Shown here piece after piece: positions 43,455-54,172 of a stretch of DNA of 64,000 bases (within the stretch, counting starts at the first letter, position 1; the number at the start of each line of letters is the position of its first letter). The translations under genes and the position numbers were made by a program. The notes beneath the pieces are model-generated. The model was not told where the DNA came from. It ran no database searches and saw only the letters and a program-made list of their open reading frames with translations. The DNA comes from Chitinophagaceae bacterium. GTDB lineage: Bacteria > Bacteroidota > Bacteroidia > Chitinophagales > Chitinophagaceae. The stretch lies in contig JAKFER010000047.1 in NCBI GenBank assembly GCA_036675565.1, positions 105,756 to 169,755 of the forward strand, written 5' to 3'.

Positions 43455-43613
43455 AGCAACTAACCAGGTTTAAAAAACAAAGCCTTAATTGCAAGGTAAC
43501 AACTTAGCAAATAAAATGTTTAAAAGGTTTCTGTTGTTTTCAATTGCTTTAAATAAATCCCAACGCTAATGAAATGATTTGAAATTTAGCCTTTCCCTGC
43601 CTGAACTTTATCG

Positions 43614-43621
43614 TAAATTTG
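43614..43621 (+). promoter_or_regulatory. Candidate TAnnTTTG -7 box for paaA
   Basis: TAAATTTG lies 21 nt upstream of the ATG at 43642. Confidence 0.3.
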
Positions 43622-43641
43622 ATACCTGTAAATTGCGTCAT

Positions 43642-44577
43642 ATGGAACAAGAATTATTCGATCAGAAACTTGATAAAGAGATCCGCATTGAGCCGCGAGA
43701 CTGGATGCCGGAAAAATATCGTCAGACTTTGATACGCCAGGTAAGCCAGCATGCACATAGTGAAATAGTTGGAATGTTACCAGAGGGCAACTGGATCAGC
43801 CGGGCTCCTTCTTTAAAAAGAAAACAAATATTAATAGCGAAAGTGCAGGATGAAGCTGGTCATGGGCTCTACTTATATTCCGCTGCTGAAACGCTGGGTA
43901 TCAGTCGTGATGAGATGATTGATCAATTACATTCTGGGAAGGCAAAATATTCATCCATTTTTAATTATCCTGCAACTACCTGGGCGGATATGGGAGCGAT
44001 AGGCTGGTTGGTTGATGGTGCTGCCATTATGAACCAGGTTCCTCTTTGCCGTGCATCTTACGGACCATATAGCCGTGCAATGATCCGCATTTGTAAAGAA
44101 GAAAGTTTTCACCAGCGCCAGGGTTTTGAAATATTATTAATGTTATGCCAGGGCAGTCCTGAACAAAAAGCAATGGCGCAGGATGCATTCAATAGATGGT
44201 GGTGGCCAAGCCTGATGATGTTTGGTCCGCACGATAGTGATTCCCCCCATACCGAACAAAGTATGCAATGGAAGATCAAGCGTTTCAGCAACGATGAATT
44301 AAGACAACGATTTGTAGATATGATCGCCGAACAGGCAAACGTTCTTGGACTCACAGTTCCGGATCCCGATCTGAAATGGAACGAAGAGCGAAAGCATTAT
44401 GATTTTGGTGAAATTAACTGGGACGAATTCTGGAACGTGGTAAAAGGTAATGGTCCCTGTAATAAGGAACGTCTTACTGCCCGTCGTAATGCACATGAAG
44501 AAGGTGCATGGGTGCGGGAAGCTGCAGTAGCATATGCTGAAAAAAGAGCCATGCGGCAAAAACAGAACGCAGCGTGA
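43642..44577 (+). CDS. paaA: 1,2-phenylacetyl-CoA epoxidase catalytic subunit PaaA
   Basis: Colinear with E. coli PaaA from [61 protein letters not shown] at 43642; the track start at 43579 is a TTG extension. Confidence 0.95.
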
Positions 44578-44719
44578 GTAGTTGGATGGTTGAATGGTTG
44601 TTAAGTTTGAATGTCCAAGTTGGAATTAGGGTATTGGGAATTTGGAATTGGGCTTACAATTAGTCAAATGGTTAATGTATTAAACTAAGCACTAAACTCT
44701 AAACCCTAAACAAATTAAA
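44578..44719 (+). repeat. Composite intergenic repeat, copy A (GGTTGA-rich block, tandem TGGAATT repeats, CTAAAC-type A/C-rich block) filling the paaA-paaB spacer
   Basis: GTAGTTGGATGGTTGAATGGTTGTTAAGTTT...GTTGGAATTAGGGTATTGGGAATTTGGAATTGGG...AATTAGT...GTATTAAACTAAGCACTAAACTCTAAACCCTAAAC shares its block order with 56955-57124. Confidence 0.6.
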
Positions 44720-44833
44720 ATGAGGAATCTTTTAAAAAAATATTATTACGGTGATTATGATGCCATAGAAGGTGGTGGTTTACCAAATGATTCAGAGAAA
44801 AAAGTTGATAAAAACGCTGTTTCTTTAACGCCA

Positions 44834-45127
44834 ATGGTAAGTGGTTCAACGGCCTGGCCACTATGGGAAGTTTTTATTCGCAGCAAACAAGGCCTGGATC
44901 ATAAACATGCAGGTAGTTTGCATGCTGCCGATGCTGCAATGGCTATTGAAAATGCACGGGATGTGTACACACGCCGTCAGGAAGGTGTAAGTATCTGGGT
45001 GGTTGAAAGCAAACATATCCACGCCACCAATCCTGATGATGCCGAAAGTTTTTATGAGCCCGCAAACGACAAGGTTTATCGTCATCCAACATTTTATGAT
45101 TTACCTGATGAAGTGAAGCATATGTAA
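44834..45127 (+). CDS. paaB: 1,2-phenylacetyl-CoA epoxidase subunit PaaB
   Basis: MVSGSTAWPLWEVFIRSKQGL.HKHAGSLHAAD...VYRHPTFY aligns from residue 1 of E. coli PaaB. The ORF is open back to the ATG at 44720 (a 38-aa extension of uncertain reality). Confidence 0.9.
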   Translation: MVSGSTAWPLWEVFIRSKQGLDHKHAGSLHAADAAMAIENARDVYTRRQEGVSIWVVESKHIHATNPDDAESFYEPANDKVYRHPTFYDLPDEVKHM

Positions 45128-45133
45128 CTGATG

Positions 45134-45168
45134 TTGGAATTGGGGATTTGGAATTTGGAATTGGGTGG
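45134..45168 (+). repeat. Left TGGAATT tandem-repeat arm
   Basis: GTTGGAATTGGGGATTTGGAATTTGGAATTGGGTGG: four units with a 7-8-nt period. Confidence 0.7.
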
Positions 45169-45192
45169 TGAAATTCACAAAAACTTTAGGCG

Positions 45193-45209
45193 TTTGAATA
45201 GTATTCAAA
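45193..45209. promoter_or_regulatory. Perfect 8+1+8 palindrome upstream of the four-helix-bundle gene
   Basis: TTTGAATA-G-TATTCAAA, 16 nt upstream of the ATG at 45225. Confidence 0.3.
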
Positions 45210-45224
45210 TTAATTAATTAAAAA

Positions 45225-45619
45225 ATGCCCGCATCAAATTCATATAAAGGTTTTAAGGATTTAGACTGCTGGAAAAAAGGCAGAGAATTAAGAAATATAA
45301 TTTCAGCGTTGGTGAAAAAATTCCCACCTGAAGAAAAGTATCAACTGGTGTCACAAATGATTCGATCCCGTCGTTCTGTTACAAACAATATGGCCGAAGG
45401 TTATGGAAGGTTTACGTATACTGATACCCGGCATTTTTTTATCCAGGCTAGGGGTTCAGTTACTGAAATAATCGATCATTTGGTAATTGCGCTTGATGAA
45501 AATATATCTCAAAAGAAGATTTTTCCGCAATAGAGATTATGTGTGAATCCGTATTTAAATTAATAAATGGCTATATCAATTATTTAGATAAACAAAATAA
45601 AGAATCATATCCTCAATAG
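45225..45619 (+). pseudogene. Four-helix-bundle protein gene (23S rRNA intervening-sequence protein / DGR Avd family, PF05635), disrupted by a 1-nt frameshift
   Basis: Frame 0 gives ...FKDLDCWKKGRELRNII..KFPPEEKYQLVSQMIRS..S.TNNMAEGYGRF...ARGS..E and stops at 45533. The family-typical C-terminus (KEDFSAIEIMCESVFKLINGYINYLDKQ) continues in another frame to 45619. One extra A in the A4 run at 45511-45514 restores a ~130-aa ORF. Confidence 0.75.
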
Positions 45620-45644
45620 ATTTTTTAAGTTGGTCTTTAAAAAT

Positions 45645-45672
45645 AATTCCTAATTCCCAATCCCAAATTCCT
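45645..45672 (-). repeat. Right TGGAATT tandem-repeat arm (inverted)
   Basis: Plus strand reads AATTCCTAATTCCCAATCCCAAATTCCT; the reverse complement is AGGAATTTGGGATTGGGAATTAGGAATT. It ends 1 nt before the paaC ATG (G45673 intervenes). Confidence 0.7.
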
Positions 45673-45673
45673 G

Positions 45674-46483
45674 ATGCAATCATATCAACTCTTTACCCAC
45701 TCTCTTCACCTCGCCGACAATGCTTTGATCCTTTCCCAGCGAAATAGTGAATGGTGTGGCCATGGACCGGTGCTGGAACAAGACATAGCTATTACCAATA
45801 TTTCACTCGACTTACTGGGACAAGCCAAGAACTTTTACGCCTATGCCGCGGAATTGTACAATGGTTTTTCGGATGATGAAAAAAATGCGGCTGACCATGT
45901 TATTCCAAGGCCATGGAAAAATTATGGAAGAGAGATTAATGAAGATGATCTTGCTTTTTTGCGGGATGAAAATCAATACCTTAATTTTTTAATGCTTGAA
46001 TTGCCCAGAGGAGATTGGGCGTTTACAACTTTGCGTCAATTCCTTTTCAGTGCCTGGCAATTTGATTTGTATACGAATTTGATGAAAAGTCCGGACGCAA
46101 CTATTGCAGCCATTGCAGATAAATCGCTTAAAGAAGTGACTTACCATTTGCGCTGGAGCAGTGAGTGGGTTATTCGTCTGGGTGATGGTACAGATGAAAG
46201 TCATGCCCGTATGCAAAAAGCTGTTGATGATCTTTGGATGTATACCGGGGAAATGTTTGAACCTTTTATGGATCAATCTTTGGTTCTGGGACTCGATTCA
46301 AAAGTTCTGCAGCAGTCCTGGTTCAGCCGCGTAAAAGATATTTTTGACGAAGCTACCCTGAACATGCCTGTTAGTGGATGGATGCAAACAGGTGGAACGA
46401 GTGGCAGGCATACGGAACACCTTGGATATATATTGGCAGAGATGCAATACCTGCAAAGAACTTTTCCAAACGCAACCTGGTAA
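45674..46483 (+). CDS. paaC: 1,2-phenylacetyl-CoA epoxidase structural subunit PaaC
   Basis: LADNALILSQRNSEWCGHGP.LEQDIA..NI.LD..GQA is typical PaaC/PaaI-oxygenase; the gene follows paaB and precedes paaD. Confidence 0.9.
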   Translation: MQSYQLFTHSLHLADNALILSQRNSEWCGHGPVLEQDIAITNISLDLLGQAKNFYAYAAELYNGFSDDEKNAADHVIPRPWKNYGREINEDDLAFLRDENQYLNFLMLELPRGDWAFTTLRQFLFSAWQFDLYTNLMKSPDATIAAIADKSLKEVTYHLRWSSEWVIRLGDGTDESHARMQKAVDDLWMYTGEMFEPFMDQSLVLGLDSKVLQQSWFSRVKDIFDEATLNMPVSGWMQTGGTSGRHTEHLGYILAEMQYLQRTFPNATW

Positions 46484-46491
46484 TTTTTTAA

Positions 46492-47010
46492 ATGAACAAA
46501 ACATCCTTACATACAACTGATCCTGCATTGGTAACACACCAGATCTGGAAGATCCTCGAAGAAGTGAACGATCCGGAAGTGCCTGTATTGTCGGTTATTG
46601 ATTTGGGTATTGTGAGGGATGTTGTTTTTAATGATAACCAATACGAAGTAATTATTACACCTACTTATTCTGGTTGTCCTGCAATGGATGTAATTAATAT
46701 GAATATTCGGCTTAAGTTAATGGAGTATGGAATGAGGGATGTTTTGGTAAAACAGGTTTTATCTCCAGCCTGGACAACAGACTGGATGTCTGAAGCCGGC
46801 AAAGAAAAATTAAAAGCATTTGGTATTGCACCTCCCAATCCGAAGCAACAGGTTTGCAGCACGGCTTTATTTGCTGATGAATCAGTGCAATGTCCGCATT
46901 GCAGCTCTTATAATACAACCCGCATCAGCGAGTTTGGCAGCACGGCCTGTAAATCTCTTTATCGCTGCGAACAATGTAAAGAGCCGTTTGATTATTTTAA
47001 ATGCCATTAA
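46492..47010 (+). CDS. paaD: Phenylacetyl-CoA epoxidase subunit PaaD (PaaJ)
   Basis: DUF59/MIP18-like N-domain (VNDPEVPVLSVIDLGIV...TPTYSGCPA) and a C-terminal Cys4 ribbon (CPHCSS...CEQCKEPF). Confidence 0.9.
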   Translation: MNKTSLHTTDPALVTHQIWKILEEVNDPEVPVLSVIDLGIVRDVVFNDNQYEVIITPTYSGCPAMDVINMNIRLKLMEYGMRDVLVKQVLSPAWTTDWMSEAGKEKLKAFGIAPPNPKQQVCSTALFADESVQCPHCSSYNTTRISEFGSTACKSLYRCEQCKEPFDYFKCH

Positions 47011-47021
47011 AAACAATGTGG

Positions 47022-47052
47022 CAATTTGATAATTTGAAAATTTGAAAATAGG
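47022..47052 (+). repeat. Degenerate AATTTGA tandem repeat (possible decayed TGGAATT-type block)
   Basis: CAATTTGATAATTTGAAAATTTGAAAATAGG directly after the paaD stop, with the same 7-8-nt period as the TGGAATT arms. Confidence 0.3.
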
Positions 47053-47140
47053 TTTTTCGAAGATTTTGTAATACTGCCTTTATACAATTTCGGTTAAACC
47101 CTTGATTATTTATTAAGGGAATTTGTTGTTAATACTGGAC

Positions 47141-47164
47141 AACTAAACACCTAAACGTTTAAAC
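47141..47164 (+). repeat. CTAAAC-type A/C-rich block
   Basis: AACTAAACACCTAAACGTTTAAAC resembles 44683-44710 and 57089-57119. Confidence 0.4.
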
Positions 47165-47169
47165 AATTC

Positions 47170-48111
47170 TCACTTAAAAGCATCCACTTCCCGGTAAGCT
47201 TTTATCAATGCAATTTCACCATCTTTTCCCGGTTGTGCATTACCGTGCTCCATGCCTACAATTCCTTTAAAACCTTTGTTGTAAATATGCTTGAAAATAT
47301 TTTTGTAGTTCATTTCACCGGTTGTGGGTTCTTTGCGGCCCGGGTTATCTCCAACCTGTAAATAAGCAATCTCCTCCCAGCATCGATCTATATTGGCAAT
47401 GATGTCGCCTTCATTACGCTGCATGTGATAGGCATCGTATAAAATCTTACATGCCGGGCTATTCACCGCTTTGCAGATCATATATGTCTGATGCGAATGA
47501 CGGAGAAAAAGATCCGGGTTATCACTCAATGGTTCCAATACCATCACCAATCCATGTTTATCCAGGATCTCGCTGCCCTTACGTAATGCCGTTATAACAT
47601 TTGCAGTCTGCATTTCATGCGATAAACTGCGATCATAATTTCCCGGTACAACGGTCATCCATTTTGCATTAACCCTTTTGGCCACTTCAACTGCATCCTT
47701 GCAATCTTTGATCATTTTATCTATCCATTCCTGCTTGCCGGTTGTTAATGTAGTTTTCCAGTGCCAGTTATCTGTCGTAATAACAAACACCCCCATTCTC
47801 ATTCCCAATTTTGCCAGGGTATCTCCAATCTTTTTTTGTTGTTCCGGTGTGCGGGCCATCATCCCATTATCTTCAATACTTCTGAAACCCTGTTCGTGTG
47901 CCCATTTTATCTGGTCCGTAAAAGATTCGCCTCCGTGTTGACGGAACATGCCATCATGAAATGCATAATCCAGGTTAAACAATTTATTGTTATTTGCTAA
48001 ATCATTTATTGAAGATGAAGGTGAATGAGTTACTGATGCAAACGATTGCGCAACGGAAGCAAACCCAGCGCCTGTCAATAATGAGTTTTTTAGAAAGTTT
48101 CTACGTTCCAT
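47170..48111 (-). CDS. TAT-exported xylose-isomerase-like TIM-barrel protein (sugar phosphate isomerase/epimerase or hydroxypyruvate-isomerase-like)
   Basis: Twin-arginine leader MERRNFLKNSLLTGAGFAS from the ATG at 48111; AP_endonuc_2-type barrel blocks (VLEPL, YDAYHMQ, VGMEH). Confidence 0.8.
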   Translation of the reverse strand: MERRNFLKNSLLTGAGFASVAQSFASVTHSPSSSINDLANNNKLFNLDYAFHDGMFRQHGGESFTDQIKWAHEQGFRSIEDNGMMARTPEQQKKIGDTLAKLGMRMGVFVITTDNWHWKTTLTTGKQEWIDKMIKDCKDAVEVAKRVNAKWMTVVPGNYDRSLSHEMQTANVITALRKGSEILDKHGLVMVLEPLSDNPDLFLRHSHQTYMICKAVNSPACKILYDAYHMQRNEGDIIANIDRCWEEIAYLQVGDNPGRKEPTTGEMNYKNIFKHIYNKGFKGIVGMEHGNAQPGKDGEIALIKAYREVDAFK

Positions 48112-48149
48112 ATTTTTTATCTTTGAGAATAAATGTAAGGTTTCATATA

Positions 48150-49139
48150 ATGTGCAGATTGTTCCTGATTGTTTTATTGATTTCTTCATCCGCGTACGGA
48201 CAAACTTCTAGGTTTCAATTTACGGAAAATAAAATGGGATCGCCGTTTCGAATTATTTTTTATCACACGGATTCCGCCGAAGCAAGTCTGGTGGCCCAAG
48301 AAAGTTTTGATCTTGTTGATTCGTTGAATTTAATTTTCAGTGATTATGATACTAAAAGTGAAATAAGCCAACTGGCTGTTCATGCTGGCAAACATCCCCA
48401 AAAAATATCACCAGCTTTGTTTGATGTAATGAAATTATCTGTTGAAGCCAATCAAAATTCGCAAAATGCTTTTTCCATATATGCAGGGGCATTAACCAAA
48501 TTATGGCGCCATGCAAGAAGCGAAAATAAATTTCCTGAAAAAAAGACAGTCAAAAAAGCACTTCGCTTATCCTCTAAAAAATATTTTAAATTTTTTCCCC
48601 GCGATGCTTCAATGTTCATTTCAGCAAATGGAGCCTCATTGGATTTTGGTGGCATCGTAAAAGGTTATACCGCACAAAAAGTGATTGAACTTCTTCATGC
48701 CAAAAATAATCACCATGCACTTGTGGATGCCGGAGGCGATATAGTTATGAGCAAACCTCCTCCGGGAAAAAAAGGCTGGTCCATTGCAGTAAGTTTACCT
48801 GGTGATGAAGAGGAATTGGTTGAGCAACAATTGCTATTAAGTGATAAGGCTGTTGCTACATCCGGGAACATGTATCAATTTATTGAACATGATGGTAAAA
48901 AATATTCACACATTATCAATCCAAAAACCGGGTATGGTATTACAGATCAGCGGCAGGTAACAGTTATTGCAAATGATGGTGCCACCGCAGACTGGCTTGC
49001 AACTGCATGCAGTATTTTACCCATATCCAAAGCTTTGAAACTTGCCGAATCTGAAAATGCATCTTTGTTAATTCTTGAAATATCTGGTGGGGTTATTTCA
49101 GCCCATAAATCGGCTACATTTAACCGTTATCTTAAATAA
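48150..49139 (+). CDS. apbE: FAD:protein FMN transferase ApbE (exported)
   Basis: Signal peptide MCRLFLIVLLISSSAYG, then ApbE blocks (MGSPFRI, S.ISQL, DFGGIVKGY, VDAGGDI, ATSGNMYQF...HIINPKTG). Confidence 0.85.
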   Translation: MCRLFLIVLLISSSAYGQTSRFQFTENKMGSPFRIIFYHTDSAEASLVAQESFDLVDSLNLIFSDYDTKSEISQLAVHAGKHPQKISPALFDVMKLSVEANQNSQNAFSIYAGALTKLWRHARSENKFPEKKTVKKALRLSSKKYFKFFPRDASMFISANGASLDFGGIVKGYTAQKVIELLHAKNNHHALVDAGGDIVMSKPPPGKKGWSIAVSLPGDEEELVEQQLLLSDKAVATSGNMYQFIEHDGKKYSHIINPKTGYGITDQRQVTVIANDGATADWLATACSILPISKALKLAESENASLLILEISGGVISAHKSATFNRYLK

Positions 49140-49169
49140 TATCATTGCAAACTTCAATATCTTAGTCAA

Positions 49170-50123
49170 ATGAAATTATGTGTTAGCCTTTTTGCCTTTT
49201 TATTTACGTCGATGTTGTTGGCGCAGGAAAATCCTGAATTTAAAAAATATACACAAAGTATTCCGGGCACGCCTGTATCTTTTAATCTGGTGCCAATACC
49301 AGGTGGTGTTTTTACAATGGGCAGTAAGGCAAATGAAAATGGAAGAGAGGTTGATGAAGGACCACAAACTGAATTTAAAATATCTCCTTTCTGGATGGGC
49401 CAATTTGAAGTAACGCAGGATGAATACTTAAGTTTTTTCAGGGATATAAATATTGCCGTTAACAGTGATGCTGATGCCGTTACAAGACCCAGTCCTCCAT
49501 ATATTGATTTTTCTCCGGGAATGGGCAAAGAAGGAAAATTTCCTGCAAACAGCATGCAACAGTATGGCGCATTAATGTATTGCCGCTGGCTTTATAATAA
49601 AACGGGCATTTTTTTCAGGCTGCCAACAGAAGCTGAATGGGAATATGCGGCAAGGGCCGGATCTGCTACTACCTATTTTTTTGGTGATGATGAAAAGGAT
49701 TTAGCTGATTTTGCATGGTATAAAAAAAACAGCGGCGGTAAATATCATGAAGTTGGATTATTAAAACCCAATCATTGGGATTTATATGATATGTATGGCA
49801 ATGTTGCAGAATGGACCCTGGATCAATATGATGCAAACTATTTTGAACGAATGAAATCAGAAAAAAATAATCCTGTACTGATCCCTGATAAAAAACATCC
49901 ACGTACCATAAAAGGAGGCAGTTATTTGGACGAAGCCACTGAATTAAGATCGGCTAACAGGATAAAATCAGAACTAAAATGGAACCAGCGTGATCCGCAA
50001 ATCCCAAAAAGTAAATGGTGGAATACGGATGCTCCATTTATTGGATTTCGGATTGTAAGACCGGTTGAACAACCAACACCTGCAGCCATTGAATCATTCT
50101 TTAAATTACATCTTGGTAAATAA
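49170..50123 (+). CDS. Formylglycine-generating-enzyme (SUMF1/FGE-sulfatase domain) family protein, exported
   Basis: Signal peptide; the LPTEAEWEYAARAG signature, GNVAEWTLD, and RGGS-like IKGGSY...R.ANR blocks. Confidence 0.8.
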   Translation: MKLCVSLFAFLFTSMLLAQENPEFKKYTQSIPGTPVSFNLVPIPGGVFTMGSKANENGREVDEGPQTEFKISPFWMGQFEVTQDEYLSFFRDINIAVNSDADAVTRPSPPYIDFSPGMGKEGKFPANSMQQYGALMYCRWLYNKTGIFFRLPTEAEWEYAARAGSATTYFFGDDEKDLADFAWYKKNSGGKYHEVGLLKPNHWDLYDMYGNVAEWTLDQYDANYFERMKSEKNNPVLIPDKKHPRTIKGGSYLDEATELRSANRIKSELKWNQRDPQIPKSKWWNTDAPFIGFRIVRPVEQPTPAAIESFFKLHLGK

Positions 50124-50137
50124 TAAAACTGACTATT

Positions 50138-51466
50138 ATGAATGAAAAAAACTCACGCCGTGAATTTGTAAAAAATGCTGGCATCCTCGGTGGTGGTATC
50201 CTTGCCATGCCTGTTATTTCGAAAGCCAATTTTTTTTCTGAAAATGATAAAGTCATTAAGGTAGCTGTTGTTGGTTGCGGAGGACGTGGCACAGGAGCAG
50301 CATTGCAGGCTTTACTAAGCAAACAGAATGTAAAAGTGGTCGCACTGGCTGATGCTTTTCGCGACAGGCTGGATAGTTGTTATAAAACATTGTCGGCAGA
50401 TGATCTGTCTGATTGGGGAATGGATGGCAGTGTAAAAGATCGTGTGGATGTTCCGGAAGCCAGGAAATTTGTTGGCTTTGATGCATACGAAAAAGCGATT
50501 CCTTTAGCCGATGTCGTCATATTAGCTACACCTCCAGGTTTCAGACCTTATCATTTCGAATCCTGCATAAATCATGGCAAACATGTATTTATGGAAAAGC
50601 CTGTGGCAGTGGATCCGGCAGGGATTCAAAAAGTATTACAGGCTGCAGCATCAGCCAAACAAAAAAAATTAAACGTGGTTGTTGGTTTGCAACGGCGTTA
50701 CCAGGATTCATACAGGGCTTTATATGAAAATAAACACCTGGTTGGAGATATCACTTCCGCACAAGCCTGGTGGAACAGTGATGGGGTTTGGGTTAAACCA
50801 AGGAAATATAACCAGACAGAAATGGAATACCAGATGCGTAATTGGTATTACTTTAACTGGCTTTGCGGTGATCATATTGTGGAACAGCATATTCATAATA
50901 TAGATGTGATCAATTGGTTTAAAGGTGCCTACCCGGTAAAAGCACAGGGTCTTGGTGGCCGGCAGGTTCGTAATGGAAAAGATCATGGAGAAATTTTTGA
51001 TCATCATTTTGTAGAATTTCATTACGCCGATGGCACCATATTGAACAGCCAGTGCCGTCATATTCCCGGAACAATGAGTAAGGTTGATGAATTAATGATC
51101 GGTACAAAAGGAAAAATTTATGGAGATGCAGCCATGATCAAAGATCCTAAGGGTAAAACGCTTTTTCAATTTGATAAAAAGAAAGACAGGAATCCATACC
51201 AGACGGAACATGACGAACTGTTTGCCGCCGTTGCAAAAAACCAGTACAAATTCGCGGATGCAGAAATTGGGGCTTACAGTACATTATCCGCAATAATGGG
51301 TAGAATGGCAACTTATTCGGGACAGGTCCTGGATGCTGAAAAATTATTGGATTCAGGTATTAGTATTATGCCAAAGGAATTTGATTTTAACGCAGCACCA
51401 CCGATTGTTCCTGATAGTTACGGCTTCTATCCTGTTGCTGTTCCGGGGAAAACAAAATACTTATAA
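50138..51466 (+). CDS. TAT-exported Gfo/Idh/MocA family oxidoreductase
   Basis: SRREFVKNAGILGGG twin-arginine leader, VAVVGCGGRGTGA Rossmann motif, MEKPVA motif, and a conserved MRNWYYFNWLCGDHIVEQHIHNIDV block. Confidence 0.85.
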   Translation: MNEKNSRREFVKNAGILGGGILAMPVISKANFFSENDKVIKVAVVGCGGRGTGAALQALLSKQNVKVVALADAFRDRLDSCYKTLSADDLSDWGMDGSVKDRVDVPEARKFVGFDAYEKAIPLADVVILATPPGFRPYHFESCINHGKHVFMEKPVAVDPAGIQKVLQAAASAKQKKLNVVVGLQRRYQDSYRALYENKHLVGDITSAQAWWNSDGVWVKPRKYNQTEMEYQMRNWYYFNWLCGDHIVEQHIHNIDVINWFKGAYPVKAQGLGGRQVRNGKDHGEIFDHHFVEFHYADGTILNSQCRHIPGTMSKVDELMIGTKGKIYGDAAMIKDPKGKTLFQFDKKKDRNPYQTEHDELFAAVAKNQYKFADAEIGAYSTLSAIMGRMATYSGQVLDAEKLLDSGISIMPKEFDFNAAPPIVPDSYGFYPVAVPGKTKYL

Positions 51467-51524
51467 CGGAGTGATGATAAAAAATCGGTCGATAGCTTTT
51501 TAAATTGTTTAAAAATTTAAATGA

Positions 51525-52298
51525 ATGTCATCTGTATTATTTGAGCTAAGAGAAGGAGTAGGCTGTATAACATTCAACAGGCCTGAAAAATTAAACTCTT
51601 TCAATGGCGAAATGGCTTTGAGCCTGCAAAAGATGCTTGATGACTGCCGTTCAGATGAAATACGCTCTGTCTATATAACGGGATCGGGTAAAGCATTTTC
51701 AGCAGGGCAGGACATTGAAGAACTGACGGGTCCAAATCCGCCATCAACCAATAAAATACTGGCGGAACATTTTAACCCTGTGATTAATAAAATAAGGACT
51801 CTTGAAAAACCGGTAATTGCCGCCGTAAATGGTGTGGCAGCCGGGGCAGGAACCAATATTGCACTTTGCTGCGATGTGGTTGTTGCTTCAAAAAGCGCAT
51901 CCTTCATCCAGGCTTTTTCAAAAATCGGATTGATACCCGATAGTGGGGGAACCTACTTTTTACCCCGGTTGATTGGCTGGCAAAAAGCCAGCGCCCTGAT
52001 GATGTTGGGTGAAAAGATAGGTGCCGATGAAGCGGAAAGATTGGGTATGATCTATAAATGTTTTGAGGATGATGAATTTGCAGTAAGTGCATTCTCTATT
52101 GCAAAAAAATTAGTACAAATGCCAACTACCGGCCTGGCCTATACGAAGAAAGCGCTGCAATCATCTTTTACCAATACGCTTGATGATCAATTAAAGCTGG
52201 AAGACAAATTGCAGCAATTGGCCTCCGAAACCCACGACTACAAGGAAGGTGTGCAGGCTTTCATGGAAAAACGCAAACCGGTTTTTAACGGAAAATAA
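51525..52298 (+). CDS. paaG: 2-(1,2-epoxy-1,2-dihydrophenyl)acetyl-CoA isomerase PaaG (crotonase fold)
   Basis: Colinear with E. coli PaaG: NRPEKLNSFN, AGQD, VNGVAAGAG, FSKIGLIPD.GGT, DY.EGV.AF.EKR.P.F.GK. Confidence 0.8.
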   Translation: MSSVLFELREGVGCITFNRPEKLNSFNGEMALSLQKMLDDCRSDEIRSVYITGSGKAFSAGQDIEELTGPNPPSTNKILAEHFNPVINKIRTLEKPVIAAVNGVAAGAGTNIALCCDVVVASKSASFIQAFSKIGLIPDSGGTYFLPRLIGWQKASALMMLGEKIGADEAERLGMIYKCFEDDEFAVSAFSIAKKLVQMPTTGLAYTKKALQSSFTNTLDDQLKLEDKLQQLASETHDYKEGVQAFMEKRKPVFNGK

Positions 52299-52338
52299 TT
52301 TTCTCTTGAAAAAGAAAGCTACTCATATTGTAGACCAG

Positions 52339-52725
52339 ATGATGGAAAATGATTATTTCTCCCAATGGCTAGGTGTGGAAAGGATGGAGGAGAAAGATGG
52401 CTATTGTCGTTTGAAAATGAAAATCAGGAAAGAAATGTGCAATGGATTTGGCATTGCGCATGGTGGCATCAGTTATTCTTTGGCAGACAGTGCCCTTGCT
52501 TTTGCATCTAACAGTCATGGGAAGCATGCCGTTTCTATTGAAACATCTATATCTCACATTAAACCACTCAAAAGTGGGGATACTATTATTGCGACTGCAG
52601 AAGAAGTTAGTTGTAGCAACCGGTTAGCTAACTACCTGGTACGGGTTGAAAACGAAAAACAGGAGTTGGTTGCTCTTTTTAAAGGAGTGGTTTTTAGAAA
52701 GGATACAAGCTGGAACCTGGAATAA
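52339..52725 (+). CDS. paaI: Hotdog-fold acyl-CoA thioesterase PaaI
   Basis: NGFGIAHGGISYSLADSALAFA matches the PaaI motif. ATG at 52339 (a TTG at 52306 is also possible); the track start at 52249 overlaps paaG. Confidence 0.8.
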   Translation: MMENDYFSQWLGVERMEEKDGYCRLKMKIRKEMCNGFGIAHGGISYSLADSALAFASNSHGKHAVSIETSISHIKPLKSGDTIIATAEEVSCSNRLANYLVRVENEKQELVALFKGVVFRKDTSWNLE

Positions 52726-52770
52726 TTTTCATGGAGATATGATTGAAAGAAATTAAATTTAGAATAACAT

Positions 52771-52800
52771 TCCTCTAAACCATTTCTAACATCTAAACTA
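52771..52800 (+). repeat. CTAAAC-type A/C-rich block immediately upstream of a start codon
   Basis: TCCTCTAAACCATTTCTAACATCTAAACTA ends 5 nt before the ATG at 52806. Compare CCTCTAAACTGATT-ATG at 57110-57127. Confidence 0.35.
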
Positions 52801-52805
52801 GGCTT

Positions 52806-53537
52806 ATGAGAAAACTTTCATTATGGGCACGTGGGCATATTATGCTTACCCGCTTCTTAATTGGTTTGCTATATGTTGTTTTGAATTTATTGGCGTTATT
52901 CTTAGGCGACTTATTATTTTCTGCAGACATAGTCCTTCCTATTTTATTTATTTATCTCCCTCTTGCATTATTTTTTACAGGATTAATAATTTACCCGGTT
53001 AAAGAAAGAAAACACAGCTACAAAAATTTTTATTTTCAACAAAAATCGGCAGATCTGTTGCTGGCAGTATCAACCTTTCTTATTGTAGTTTATGGAGGTA
53101 ATGCTTTCAATAAGACCTCTCAAACCCCTCTCTCATCTGCCTATGCCACCAGTTTTTCCATTCCTTCAAATAAACTGGTAAATACAAGCTCTAAAATTGA
53201 ATCTAAGGAGGAGTCTAAACCGGCAGCAAAGAAACCCGTTTCCAAGAAAGAATTAAAAAAGAAACTCAAAAGTAAATGGAAAGAATTTCGCAAACATTAT
53301 AAGGAATCTACCAAAGGAGAAAAGGCAGCGCTTATCATTCTCTCAATTATTATTGCTGCGGGGTTATTACTGTTATTGGCAGGATTATCATGCGAACTTT
53401 CATGTGCAGGTTCAGATGGGGCAGCCGTTGTAGTTGGTCTTTTGGGAACCGGGTTAATCATCTTTTTATTGGTGCGGGTTATCCAAAGAATTAATCGGGG
53501 TCCACGAGTTAAAAAAGCCCCCGCTGAAACCACCTGA
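52806..53537 (+). CDS. Hypothetical multi-pass membrane protein with a Lys/Ser-rich linker
   Basis: Hydrophobic segments at both ends and a central KESKPAAKKPVSKKELKKKLKSKWKEFRK stretch. I recognise no family. Confidence 0.5.
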   Translation: MRKLSLWARGHIMLTRFLIGLLYVVLNLLALFLGDLLFSADIVLPILFIYLPLALFFTGLIIYPVKERKHSYKNFYFQQKSADLLLAVSTFLIVVYGGNAFNKTSQTPLSSAYATSFSIPSNKLVNTSSKIESKEESKPAAKKPVSKKELKKKLKSKWKEFRKHYKESTKGEKAALIILSIIIAAGLLLLLAGLSCELSCAGSDGAAVVVGLLGTGLIIFLLVRVIQRINRGPRVKKAPAETT

Positions 53538-53581
53538 TTCACTCTAAAATTTTTTCATCAATTTTGAATGAAAGCAAGTGC

Positions 53582-54172
53582 ATGTTTTATGAATTTGACG
53601 GCTTCAGACCAGTTGTAGATACATCTTCTTTCGTTCATCCCCAGGCGGTAGTTACAGGCAATGTAATTATTGGCAAGAATGTTTACATCGGTCCGGGTGC
53701 TATGCTGCGTGGAGATTGGGGTGCAATCATTATTGAGGATGGGTGTAATGTGCAGGAAAATTGTATCATTCATATGTTTCCCGGAGTTACGGTTCATTTG
53801 AAAGAGGCGGCACATATTGGACATGGTGCAGTAATTCATGGAGCAACTATTGGCAAAAATTGTCTGGTTGGAATGAATGCGGTGATCATGGATAATGTGG
53901 ATTTGGGTGATGAATGTATAGTGGGTGCATTAACTTTTATAAAACAAGGAGAAATAATTGCTGCACGATCGGTAGTTGTCGGTAATCCTTCAAAGGTTAT
54001 AAAAAAAGTGAGTGATGAAATGCTGCAATGGAAAACAGAAGGCACTCAATTATACCAGCAATTACCCCAGGAAATGCATTTACATGCAAAACCTTGTGAA
54101 CCATTACAGGAAATTCCGGCTGACCGTCCTAAACAGAAAGTGAATTATAAACCCTGGAATAAAAAATCATAA
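53582..54172 (+). CDS. paaY: PaaY-type hexapeptide-repeat (gamma-carbonic-anhydrase-like) protein
   Basis: Colinear with E. coli PaaY: Y.FDG..PVV...SFVHP.AV..G.V..GK.VY.GP.A.LRGD.G....DG.N.Q.NC..H ... VGMNAV.MD. ATG at 53582. Confidence 0.8.
   Translation: MFYEFDGFRPVVDTSSFVHPQAVVTGNVIIGKNVYIGPGAMLRGDWGAIIIEDGCNVQENCIIHMFPGVTVHLKEAAHIGHGAVIHGATIGKNCLVGMNAVIMDNVDLGDECIVGALTFIKQGEIIAARSVVVGNPSKVIKKVSDEMLQWKTEGTQLYQQLPQEMHLHAKPCEPLQEIPADRPKQKVNYKPWNKKS

Follow-up and report, generated by a model that had tools for sequence, protein, structure and literature searches.

Within a 64,000-nucleotide stretch of a Chitinophagaceae bacterium contig (hereafter the window), a compact block of four genes encodes exported proteins with redox-related folds: a xylose-isomerase-like triosephosphate isomerase (TIM) barrel on the minus strand and, on the plus strand, an ApbE-family flavin mononucleotide (FMN) transferase, a protein with the fold of formylglycine-generating enzymes (FGE) and a Gfo/Idh/MocA oxidoreductase (Gfo). 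Our comparative analysis points to a conserved periplasmic dehydrogenase module in which the FGE-fold protein is an obligate, redox-linked partner. The full mechanism that we propose would have ApbE flavinylate the FGE-fold protein, the flavin re-oxidise NAD(P)H bound to Gfo, and the TIM barrel process the keto product. We assign this mechanism a probability of about 0.6 and place higher confidence in the conserved module as such. The original prediction for this block had offered two readings, a novel flavinylation module or a system for periplasmic oxidative glycoside cleavage. The former is now favoured, with the FGE-like protein as the likely ApbE target, and the latter has become less so. 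Three observations had been named in advance as counting against an exported redox module, namely lack of co-conservation, an ApbE target elsewhere (for example Nqr or Rnf), and sulfatase maturation by the FGE-like protein; each was tested, none was borne out, and the conserved exported module is supported.

Phylogenetic profiles were drawn from one set of 301 Bacteroidota genomes, searched with each protein in turn. FGE-like orthologs occurred in 24 genomes and Gfo orthologs, 55–73% identical to the window enzyme, also in 24, with 23 genomes common to both (Fisher p = 3e-32, shared ancestry ignored). In 21 of the 23 genomes other than that of the window, the FGE-like gene was immediately followed by Gfo. 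TIM-barrel orthologs (at least 50% identity) were present in 33 of the 301 genomes, including 23 of the 24 FGE-positive ones, and the gene adjoined the FGE-like/Gfo pair in 14 of the 23 genomes other than that of the window. An ApbE gene was located at most 2 kb from the pair in 10 of the 23 and at most 10 kb from it in two more, and six genomes carried a four-gene FGE-Gfo-ApbE-TIM operon.

A scan of one genome per species extended the FGE-like orthologs to Bacteroidota, Planctomycetota, Verrucomicrobiota, Acidobacteriota and Gemmatimonadota; the FGE-like/Gfo pair was found in all four non-Bacteroidota phyla as well, and loci from five phyla had an adjacent ApbE. Comparison of 46 orthologous loci, many of them ended by contig ends, returned just four recurrent families: the FGE-like protein (46), Gfo (33), ApbE (18) and the TIM barrel (10). 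The core of the module is thus the obligate FGE-like/Gfo pair, with the TIM barrel nearly always encoded in the genome and ApbE frequently attached. Smaller arrangements were seen among close homologues of the FGE-like protein, which stands with Gfo alone in Arcicella and with Gfo and a divergent TIM-barrel gene in Niabella.

Copy number varied in a few genomes. One of them (G200; contigs C226, C112, C44, C268 and C89) encodes five Gfo paralogs, 48–57% identical to the window Gfo, and one FGE-like gene, which may reflect either one carrier for several dehydrogenases or a fragmented assembly. Tandemly duplicated FGE-like genes, each with both of the family-defining inserts described below, occur in a Pirellulaceae metagenome-assembled genome (MAG; L030:5770-8414) and a Fimbriiglobus MAG (L035:1367-3651).

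The FGE-like protein of the window (317 amino acids, 49,170–50,123, plus strand) is Sec-exported and matches PF03781 at 143.6 bits over residues 40–296. This is its sole Pfam match; FMN_bind, DUF2271 and DUF3570 domains are absent. The FGE fold is present, and the copper-binding cysteine pair that FGE/SUMF1 carries C-terminal to (R/K)GGS is missing: no Cys follows the KGGSY motif of the window protein. Aligned with MAFFT, 64 distinct members of the family share no conserved Cys or His; the one partly conserved Cys is C138, found in 45 of them. Judged by its sequence, the protein is not a formylglycine-generating enzyme. Because the catalytic cysteines are lacking and no Cys or His is conserved, it cannot mature sulfatases, and the same absence makes a Cu or Fe oxidase site unlikely. 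The Pfam FGE-sulfatase match and public annotations that name a formylglycine-generating enzyme would speak for a true FGE maturing sulfatases. This reading is already contradicted by the missing cysteine pair and by the company that the family keeps, since it tracks the occurrence of Gfo and not that of sulfatases, and the 46 loci show no recurrent sulfatase; we consider its chances negligible.

Two inserts define the family. Generic FGE-domain paralogs, whose gene neighbourhoods lack Gfo, ApbE and the TIM barrel, align with gaps at both. Insert 1, with the consensus D-A-[VI]-[TS]-R-P-[ST]-x-P-Y, spans residues 102–111 of the window protein and contains the heptad D102-A-V-T-R-P-S108 (49,473–49,493, plus strand), a candidate non-canonical flavinylation site in which Ser108 is the proposed FMN-bearing residue. 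The heptad, in a loop missing from the generic FGE paralogs, has the same spacing as the ApbE recognition motif D-x-x-[ST]-G-A-[ST] (PMC12052999). Of the 64 members, 32 have Thr and 31 have Ser at position 7, the sole exception being a frameshifted fragment; 56 have Asp at position 1, and 51 have Thr or Ser at position 4. Arg occupies position 5 in 41 members and Gly in eight, and position 6 holds Pro in 59 and Ala in four. A motif scan found no canonical D-x-x-[ST]-G-A-[ST] in any of the four window proteins, in agreement with the earlier inspection by eye, which had noted no DxxSGAT-type motif in the neighbours of ApbE. In two family members of different lineages, the canonical motif occupies the same alignment column as the heptad (DGVSGAT in L110 and DGITGAT in L038), and neither the 55 Gfo orthologs nor the 26 TIM-barrel orthologs scanned for it contained a copy.

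Insert 2 of the window protein reads W-N-Q-R-D-P-Q-I-P-K-S-K-W-W (49,980–50,021, plus strand), with the consensus W-x3-D-P-Q-x-P-K-S-x-W-W at residues 271–284. D275, P276, P279, S281 and W283 are invariant in all 64 members, and this segment could serve in flavin binding or as a docking surface for Gfo.

The closest solved structure is PvdO, the dihydropyoverdine dehydrogenase of Pseudomonas (PDB 5hha; E = 1e-23), likewise a periplasmic FGE fold without the FGE cysteines that has been implicated in oxidation and that carries D-x-x-T-R-P in the same loop. PvdO aligns D-G-D-T-R-P-G with the heptad and, unlike the window protein, has Gly, without a hydroxyl group, at the position proposed to bear the flavin. 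The alignment with PvdO stops at query residue 224, so that insert 2 (271–284) lies outside it. The window protein misses the cut-offs of all curated equivalogs by a wide margin, scoring 113.6 bits against 500 for the PvdO equivalog NF051459, and no pyoverdine genes were found near the block, which sets its context apart from that of PvdO.

A profile search of 1.84 billion representatives gave 22,929 matches to the FGE-like protein at E <= 1e-30, mostly long multi-domain FGE-repeat proteins, and this count is accordingly not a measure of subfamily size. In one Limisphaerales MAG (L013:4636-6852), a family member carries a fused N-terminal extension of about 440 amino acids that gives weak FG-GAP repeat matches and has no haem motif.

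The second component, the ApbE-family FAD:protein FMN transferase (329 amino acids, 48,150–49,139, plus strand; PF02424, 218 bits), carries a Sec signal peptide and aligns with the solved FMN transferases 7esa (E = 2e-30) and 1vrm. The motifs GGI(A/V)KG, D(A/L)GG, TSG, HI(I/L)(N/D)P.TG and T.AD.L(A/S)TA are all present. With an ApbE domain and its conserved flavin- and Mg-binding motifs, the protein is predicted to transfer FMN to Ser/Thr.

The window genome encodes four ApbE genes, of which the window copy is the most divergent. The second directly follows nqrC, nqrD, nqrE and nqrF. The third (C101:11816-14655) stands after a thioredoxin-like (Thioredoxin_7/DUF255) gene and is followed by a DUF3570 gene, DUF3570 being a known ApbE substrate class (PMC8238504). 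The fourth (C315:38584-39970) also follows a thioredoxin-like (Thioredoxin_7/DUF255) gene, and its contig ends just past ApbE. Each of the three non-window genes thus has a neighbour of a type already known to accompany ApbE: nqrCDEF, DUF3570 and a thioredoxin-like protein. The single FMN_bind domain of the genome belongs to NqrC, which is encoded on another contig than the window.

In a tree of 57 ApbE sequences, a split with SH-aLRT 99 separated a window-side clade of 32 sequences from five phyla. Among these 32, 29 are adjacent to the module, two lie on fragmented module contigs and one is a long-branch paralog. Searches at E <= 1e-44 found window-clade ApbE in 14 of the 301 genomes, all 14 of which carry the module, including four whose FGE-like gene was too divergent for the first threshold. 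Five module ApbEs from Sphingobacteriaceae group with housekeeping-type sequences on the other side of the split, which, on the basis of this tree, is a second, independent recruitment to the module; in two of these genomes the module ApbE is the sole ApbE.

Bacteroidota need ApbE for NqrB and NqrC, and the Sphingobacteriaceae provide cases in which the only ApbE of a genome, of housekeeping type, sits in the module. A chance placement of a housekeeping transferase for Na+-NQR or another respiratory complex would fit these facts. For the window it is already contradicted by the separate ApbE directly after nqrCDEF, which also disposes of the concern that Nqr is the real target of the window enzyme, and by the placement of the window copy in a clade confined to module-bearing genomes. 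We therefore regard it as very improbable.

ApbE is adjacent to the FGE-like gene in 18 of the 46 loci, in varying order and strand. Pairs of ApbE and the FGE-like gene also exist with no adjacent Gfo (L015 and its counterpart in genome G295, L024, L029 and L046), which indicates the FGE-like protein as the partner of ApbE. Among evenly flanked loci, ApbE was adjacent in 10 of 16 cases with an R-P heptad versus none of seven with a G-P or G-A type (p = 0.007), a link that is only suggestive, as the G-P/G-A set is phylogenetically clustered. A dedicated ApbE is not strictly needed for R-P sites, since Sphingobacteriaceae and several Chitinophagaceae with R-P heptads have housekeeping-type ApbE only. 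All 20 module genomes without an adjacent ApbE encode one elsewhere.

In two Flavobacteriaceae genomes (L015:5809-8505 and G295:C1:2231308-2233717) about 650 bp separate the FGE-like gene from the ApbE gene downstream of it; the intervening stretch contains a YceI-like gene in L015, and G295 has its Gfo ortholog at a distance of 1.3 Mb. YceI-like proteins have been described as polyisoprenoid-binding, which might hint at a quinone link. An 812-amino-acid open frame in L095 was considered as a Gfo-ApbE fusion and rejected: its only Pfam match is ApbE, and it is a read-through frame in a GC-rich genome.

A role in electron transfer is suggested by gene fusions. In six loci from Bacteroidales, Draconibacterium and an Acidobacteriota MAG, the FGE-like domain with both inserts is fused to a NapC/NirT tetrahaem cytochrome, and in five loci from Verrucomicrobiota, Chthoniobacteraceae and Bryobacteraceae to PSCyt1/cbb3-type monohaem cytochromes c. 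All of these fusions except L026 adjoin a Gfo gene. The joining of two unrelated cytochrome architectures to the same domain places it in an electron-transfer chain. The window protein represents the stand-alone form.

These fusions bear directly on an alternative in which the FGE-fold protein is a non-redox accessory of Gfo (for example a scaffold, a subunit that binds substrate or resembles a lectin, or an enzyme that acts further on the oxidised sugar), with ApbE serving another target or flavin trafficking. FGE-fold proteins are often non-catalytic scaffolds, and PDB matches of the window protein include PorK/GldK and a Treponema surface protein. The heptad moreover lacks the G-A of characterised sites, half of the modules have no adjacent ApbE, and some ApbE homologues are FAD pyrophosphatases and not transferases (PMC4767422). 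Such an accessory role would leave unexplained the two differing cytochrome c fusions, the two recruitments of ApbE together with an ApbE clade restricted to the module, the ApbE-FGE pairs without an adjacent Gfo, and the canonical motif at the same column in two members. On balance we hold it to be unlikely.

The dehydrogenase itself (442 amino acids, 50,138–51,466, plus strand) has both the Rossmann and the C-terminal alpha/beta domain of the Gfo/Idh/MocA family, with PF01408 at 55.9 bits (cut-off 24) and PF02894 at 23.2 bits (cut-off 22.9). It carries a twin-arginine translocation (Tat) signal peptide, MNEKNSRREFVKNAGILGGGILAMPVISKA (50,138–50,236, plus strand), with an SRREFVK motif, and presumably crosses the membrane with NAD(P) already bound. 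Among solved structures, inositol dehydrogenases come closest (E = 5e-14). The window Gfo belongs neither to the inositol 2-dehydrogenase IolG family (TIGR04380; 58.5 bits, cut-off 355) nor to the BT_2158 family (NF058561; 34.4 bits, cut-off 750). The TIM barrel (313 amino acids, 47,170–48,111, minus strand; PF01261, 102 bits in Pfam) is likewise Tat-exported, through the signal peptide MERRNFLKNSLLTGAGFASVAQSFA (48,034–48,111, minus strand), which combines an ERRNFLK motif with a hydrophobic region and an A-x-A-like end. Its best NCBIfam matches are TIGR03234 (121 bits versus a cut-off of 353) and NF043033 (116 versus 325); by these scores it is of the hydroxypyruvate/oxo-tetronate isomerase-like branch and a member of no curated equivalog.

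In its Tat leader, Gfo/Idh/MocA fold, periplasmic location, TIM-barrel partner and cofactor re-oxidation problem, this pair resembles the Zymomonas glucose-fructose oxidoreductase and BT2158/AL3 (PMC8121099; bioRxiv 10.1101/2024.03.25.586180). Tat-exported Gfo-type enzymes keep their NAD bound and do not exchange it, and their re-oxidation in vivo is unresolved or assumed to proceed by keto-sugar reduction (PMC8121099; bioRxiv 10.1101/2024.03.25.586180). The block could accordingly perform a redox-neutral 3-keto-glycoside cleavage like that of BT2156-BT2159 or AL1-AL4, in which cleavage or hydration of the Gfo-oxidised glycoside would fall to the TIM barrel and the FGE-like protein, the released keto-sugar would re-oxidise the enzyme, and ApbE would be incidental. 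That pathway is built around a Tat-exported Gfo that retains its NAD and a sugar-isomerase-like TIM barrel, and strong co-conservation links the TIM barrel of the module to the FGE-like/Gfo pair. The window Gfo is, however, only distantly related to BT2158 (34 bits versus 750), and its partners are an FGE-fold protein and ApbE in place of the DUF1080 3-keto-glycoside hydrolase and second Gfo of BT2156-BT2160/AL1-AL5, neither of which, nor a SusR-type regulator, recurs in the 46 loci. The linkage to ApbE and the cytochrome fusions argue for net electron export instead, and we consider redox-neutral cleavage distinctly unlikely.

In the flavinylation mechanism that we favour, Gfo, presumably folded with NAD(P) before its export by Tat, would oxidise a sugar, polyol or glycoside. 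ApbE would attach FMN to Ser108 of the Sec-exported FGE-fold protein in the periplasm. The FGE-like protein is the only Sec-exported protein of the block other than ApbE itself, which suits a modification made after export. The tethered FMN would then accept hydride from Gfo-bound NAD(P)H, permitting turnover without a free NAD(P) pool, and electrons would leave to an acceptor outside the block, a cytochrome c or possibly O2, the cytochrome being fused in other lineages. The Tat-exported TIM barrel would isomerise, epimerise or beta-eliminate the keto product. Generalised to the subfamily, the proposal makes these FGE-fold proteins, currently annotated as formylglycine-generating or 'SUMF1/EgtB/PvdO nonheme iron' enzymes, a hitherto overlooked group of ApbE substrates with the relaxed site D-x-x-[STA]-x-[PA]-[ST], whose FMN would re-oxidise the NAD(P)H of Tat-exported Gfo and pass electrons to c-type cytochromes in respiratory dehydrogenases of at least five phyla. 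We judge this broader claim to have an even chance of being correct.

Several observations weigh against flavinylation of the FGE-fold protein. We know of no ApbE shown to accept an R-P-type site. Every characterised ApbE site has G-A where the heptad has R-P (review PMC12052999). Position 4 is Ala in nine of the 64 members and position 1 is not Asp in eight. The invariant S281 shows that conserved hydroxyl groups in this family need not mean flavinylation, and the D-x-x-T-R-P shared with PvdO implies that the loop is in part an ancestral feature of the fold. In about half of the module genomes a dedicated ApbE is missing from the neighbourhood, so that either a housekeeping enzyme must serve or the flavin is not obligatory. 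ApbE is common in these phyla, which makes its presence in all module genomes weak evidence, and the profile statistics ignore shared ancestry. An AlphaFold2 model of the FGE-like protein, computed from a 21-sequence alignment, reached a mean pLDDT of 62.7, with both inserts below 50, which is too poor for geometry. Finally, the window block does not encode the electron acceptor.

The proposed system shares features with several described ones. As in the ApbE-flavinylated extracytosolic systems surveyed by Meheust et al. 2021 (NqrC, RnfG and PplA with FMN_bind; DUF2271; DUF3570; PMC8238504), ApbE stands beside an exported protein with a D-x-x-[ST]-x-x-[ST] loop, in association with cytochromes and periplasmic redox enzymes. 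It differs from the known substrates in that the carrier has the FGE-sulfatase fold and R-P in place of G-A, and in that flavinylation is here predicted from sequence. Neither that survey (PMC8238504) nor the 2025 ApbE review (PMC12052999) mentions the sulfatase, FGE or Gfo families. The glycoside 3-dehydrogenases LacABC and ThuAB (PMC8121099, PMC9007349) similarly couple periplasmic sugar oxidation to a c-type cytochrome, which relatives of the window protein have fused to the FGE-like domain. Unlike LacABC/ThuAB, the module would use an NAD(P)-type Gfo as the catalytic subunit and carry its proposed flavin on a separate FGE-fold protein. The catalytic subunit of LacABC is a GMC-type FAD enzyme. 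The literature searched contained no paper linking ApbE, FGE-fold proteins and Gfo enzymes, and the view that the combination is not a described system therefore stands.

Few exported enzyme families have expanded as much in Bacteroidota, Planctomycetota and Verrucomicrobiota as the Tat-exported Gfo/Idh/MocA proteins, which act where there is no NAD(P) pool. If the proposed mechanism is correct, an ApbE-loaded flavin carrier would be a direct answer to the recycling of the bound cofactor, at least for the window Gfo family, and would provide a route for periplasmic sugar or polyol oxidation into respiration. A new protein fold and a relaxed recognition motif would join the ApbE targets, and the annotation of a large family, with thousands of database matches labelled formylglycine-generating enzymes, would be corrected.

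The organisation of the block agrees with the earlier description: Pfam matches and the leaders read directly from the translations identify four genes for exported proteins. The Tat leaders are MERRNFLK in the TIM barrel and SRREFVK in Gfo, and the Sec-type leaders are MCRLFLIVLLISSSAYGQ in ApbE and MKLCVSLFAFLFTSMLLAQ in the FGE-like protein. The tight packing reported before was also reproduced, with 30 nt between the ApbE stop (49,139) and the FGE start (49,170) and 14 nt between the FGE stop (50,123) and the Gfo start (50,138). For the TIM-barrel gene, the likeliest start is the ATG at 48,111 and not 48,189, as its orthologs align from MERRNFL; ApbE, again judging from orthologs, most likely starts at the ATG at 48,150 and not at the TTG at 47,994. 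With these corrections, the spacer between the two divergent genes is just 38 nt.

The block lies in a phenylacetate (paa) cluster, after paaA, paaB, a small four-helix-bundle cassette, paaC and paaD, and before paaG, paaI, a membrane protein gene and paaY, of which paaG, paaI and paaY share the strand of the plus-strand block genes. Three other Chitinophagaceae-type contigs place the full block between paaD and paaG, at about 64% protein identity, and in one of them (L008) ApbE begins 9 nt past paaD. The GC content of the block is even and the same as that of its flanks. Owing to this shared placement and matching composition, the block is not a recent insertion, and its position inside the paa cluster is old in the Chitinophagaceae lineage. 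No sign of recent mobility was seen, and no extra gene family recurs at the block borders in relatives. The suggestion that the block is a transplantable unit inserted into the paa cluster thus holds for the many differing contexts across lineages and fails as regards a recent insertion here.

The conserved paaD-paaG placement, with only 9 nt between paaD and ApbE in L008, the common strand with paaG, paaI and paaY, and the failure to find a paaE reductase gene near the window paa cluster (43,579–54,172) could together be taken to mean that the block serves phenylacetate catabolism, for example by replacing the missing PaaE. Against this, all four proteins are exported whereas the paa pathway handles cytoplasmic coenzyme A thioesters, and the module stands in unrelated contexts in most genomes. 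We accordingly give this possibility very little credence.

The paa cluster at 43,579–54,172 comprises paaA, B, C, D, G, I and Y, and the genes upstream of it encode an extracytoplasmic function (ECF) sigma factor, a FecR-like protein and a TonB-dependent receptor. Relatives L008–L010 have an Rce1-like (CPBP) gene between paaC and paaD, which is absent from the window. The 3′ ends of paaD and the TIM-barrel gene face each other across a terminator-like hairpin, CCCTTGATTATTTATTAAGGG (47,099–47,119), possibly a bidirectional terminator separating paaABCD from the block; the evidence for this is weak, terminator-like sites in the region being no more numerous than in shuffled sequence. An A/C-rich CTAAAC-type repeat (47,141–47,164) adjoins the hairpin.

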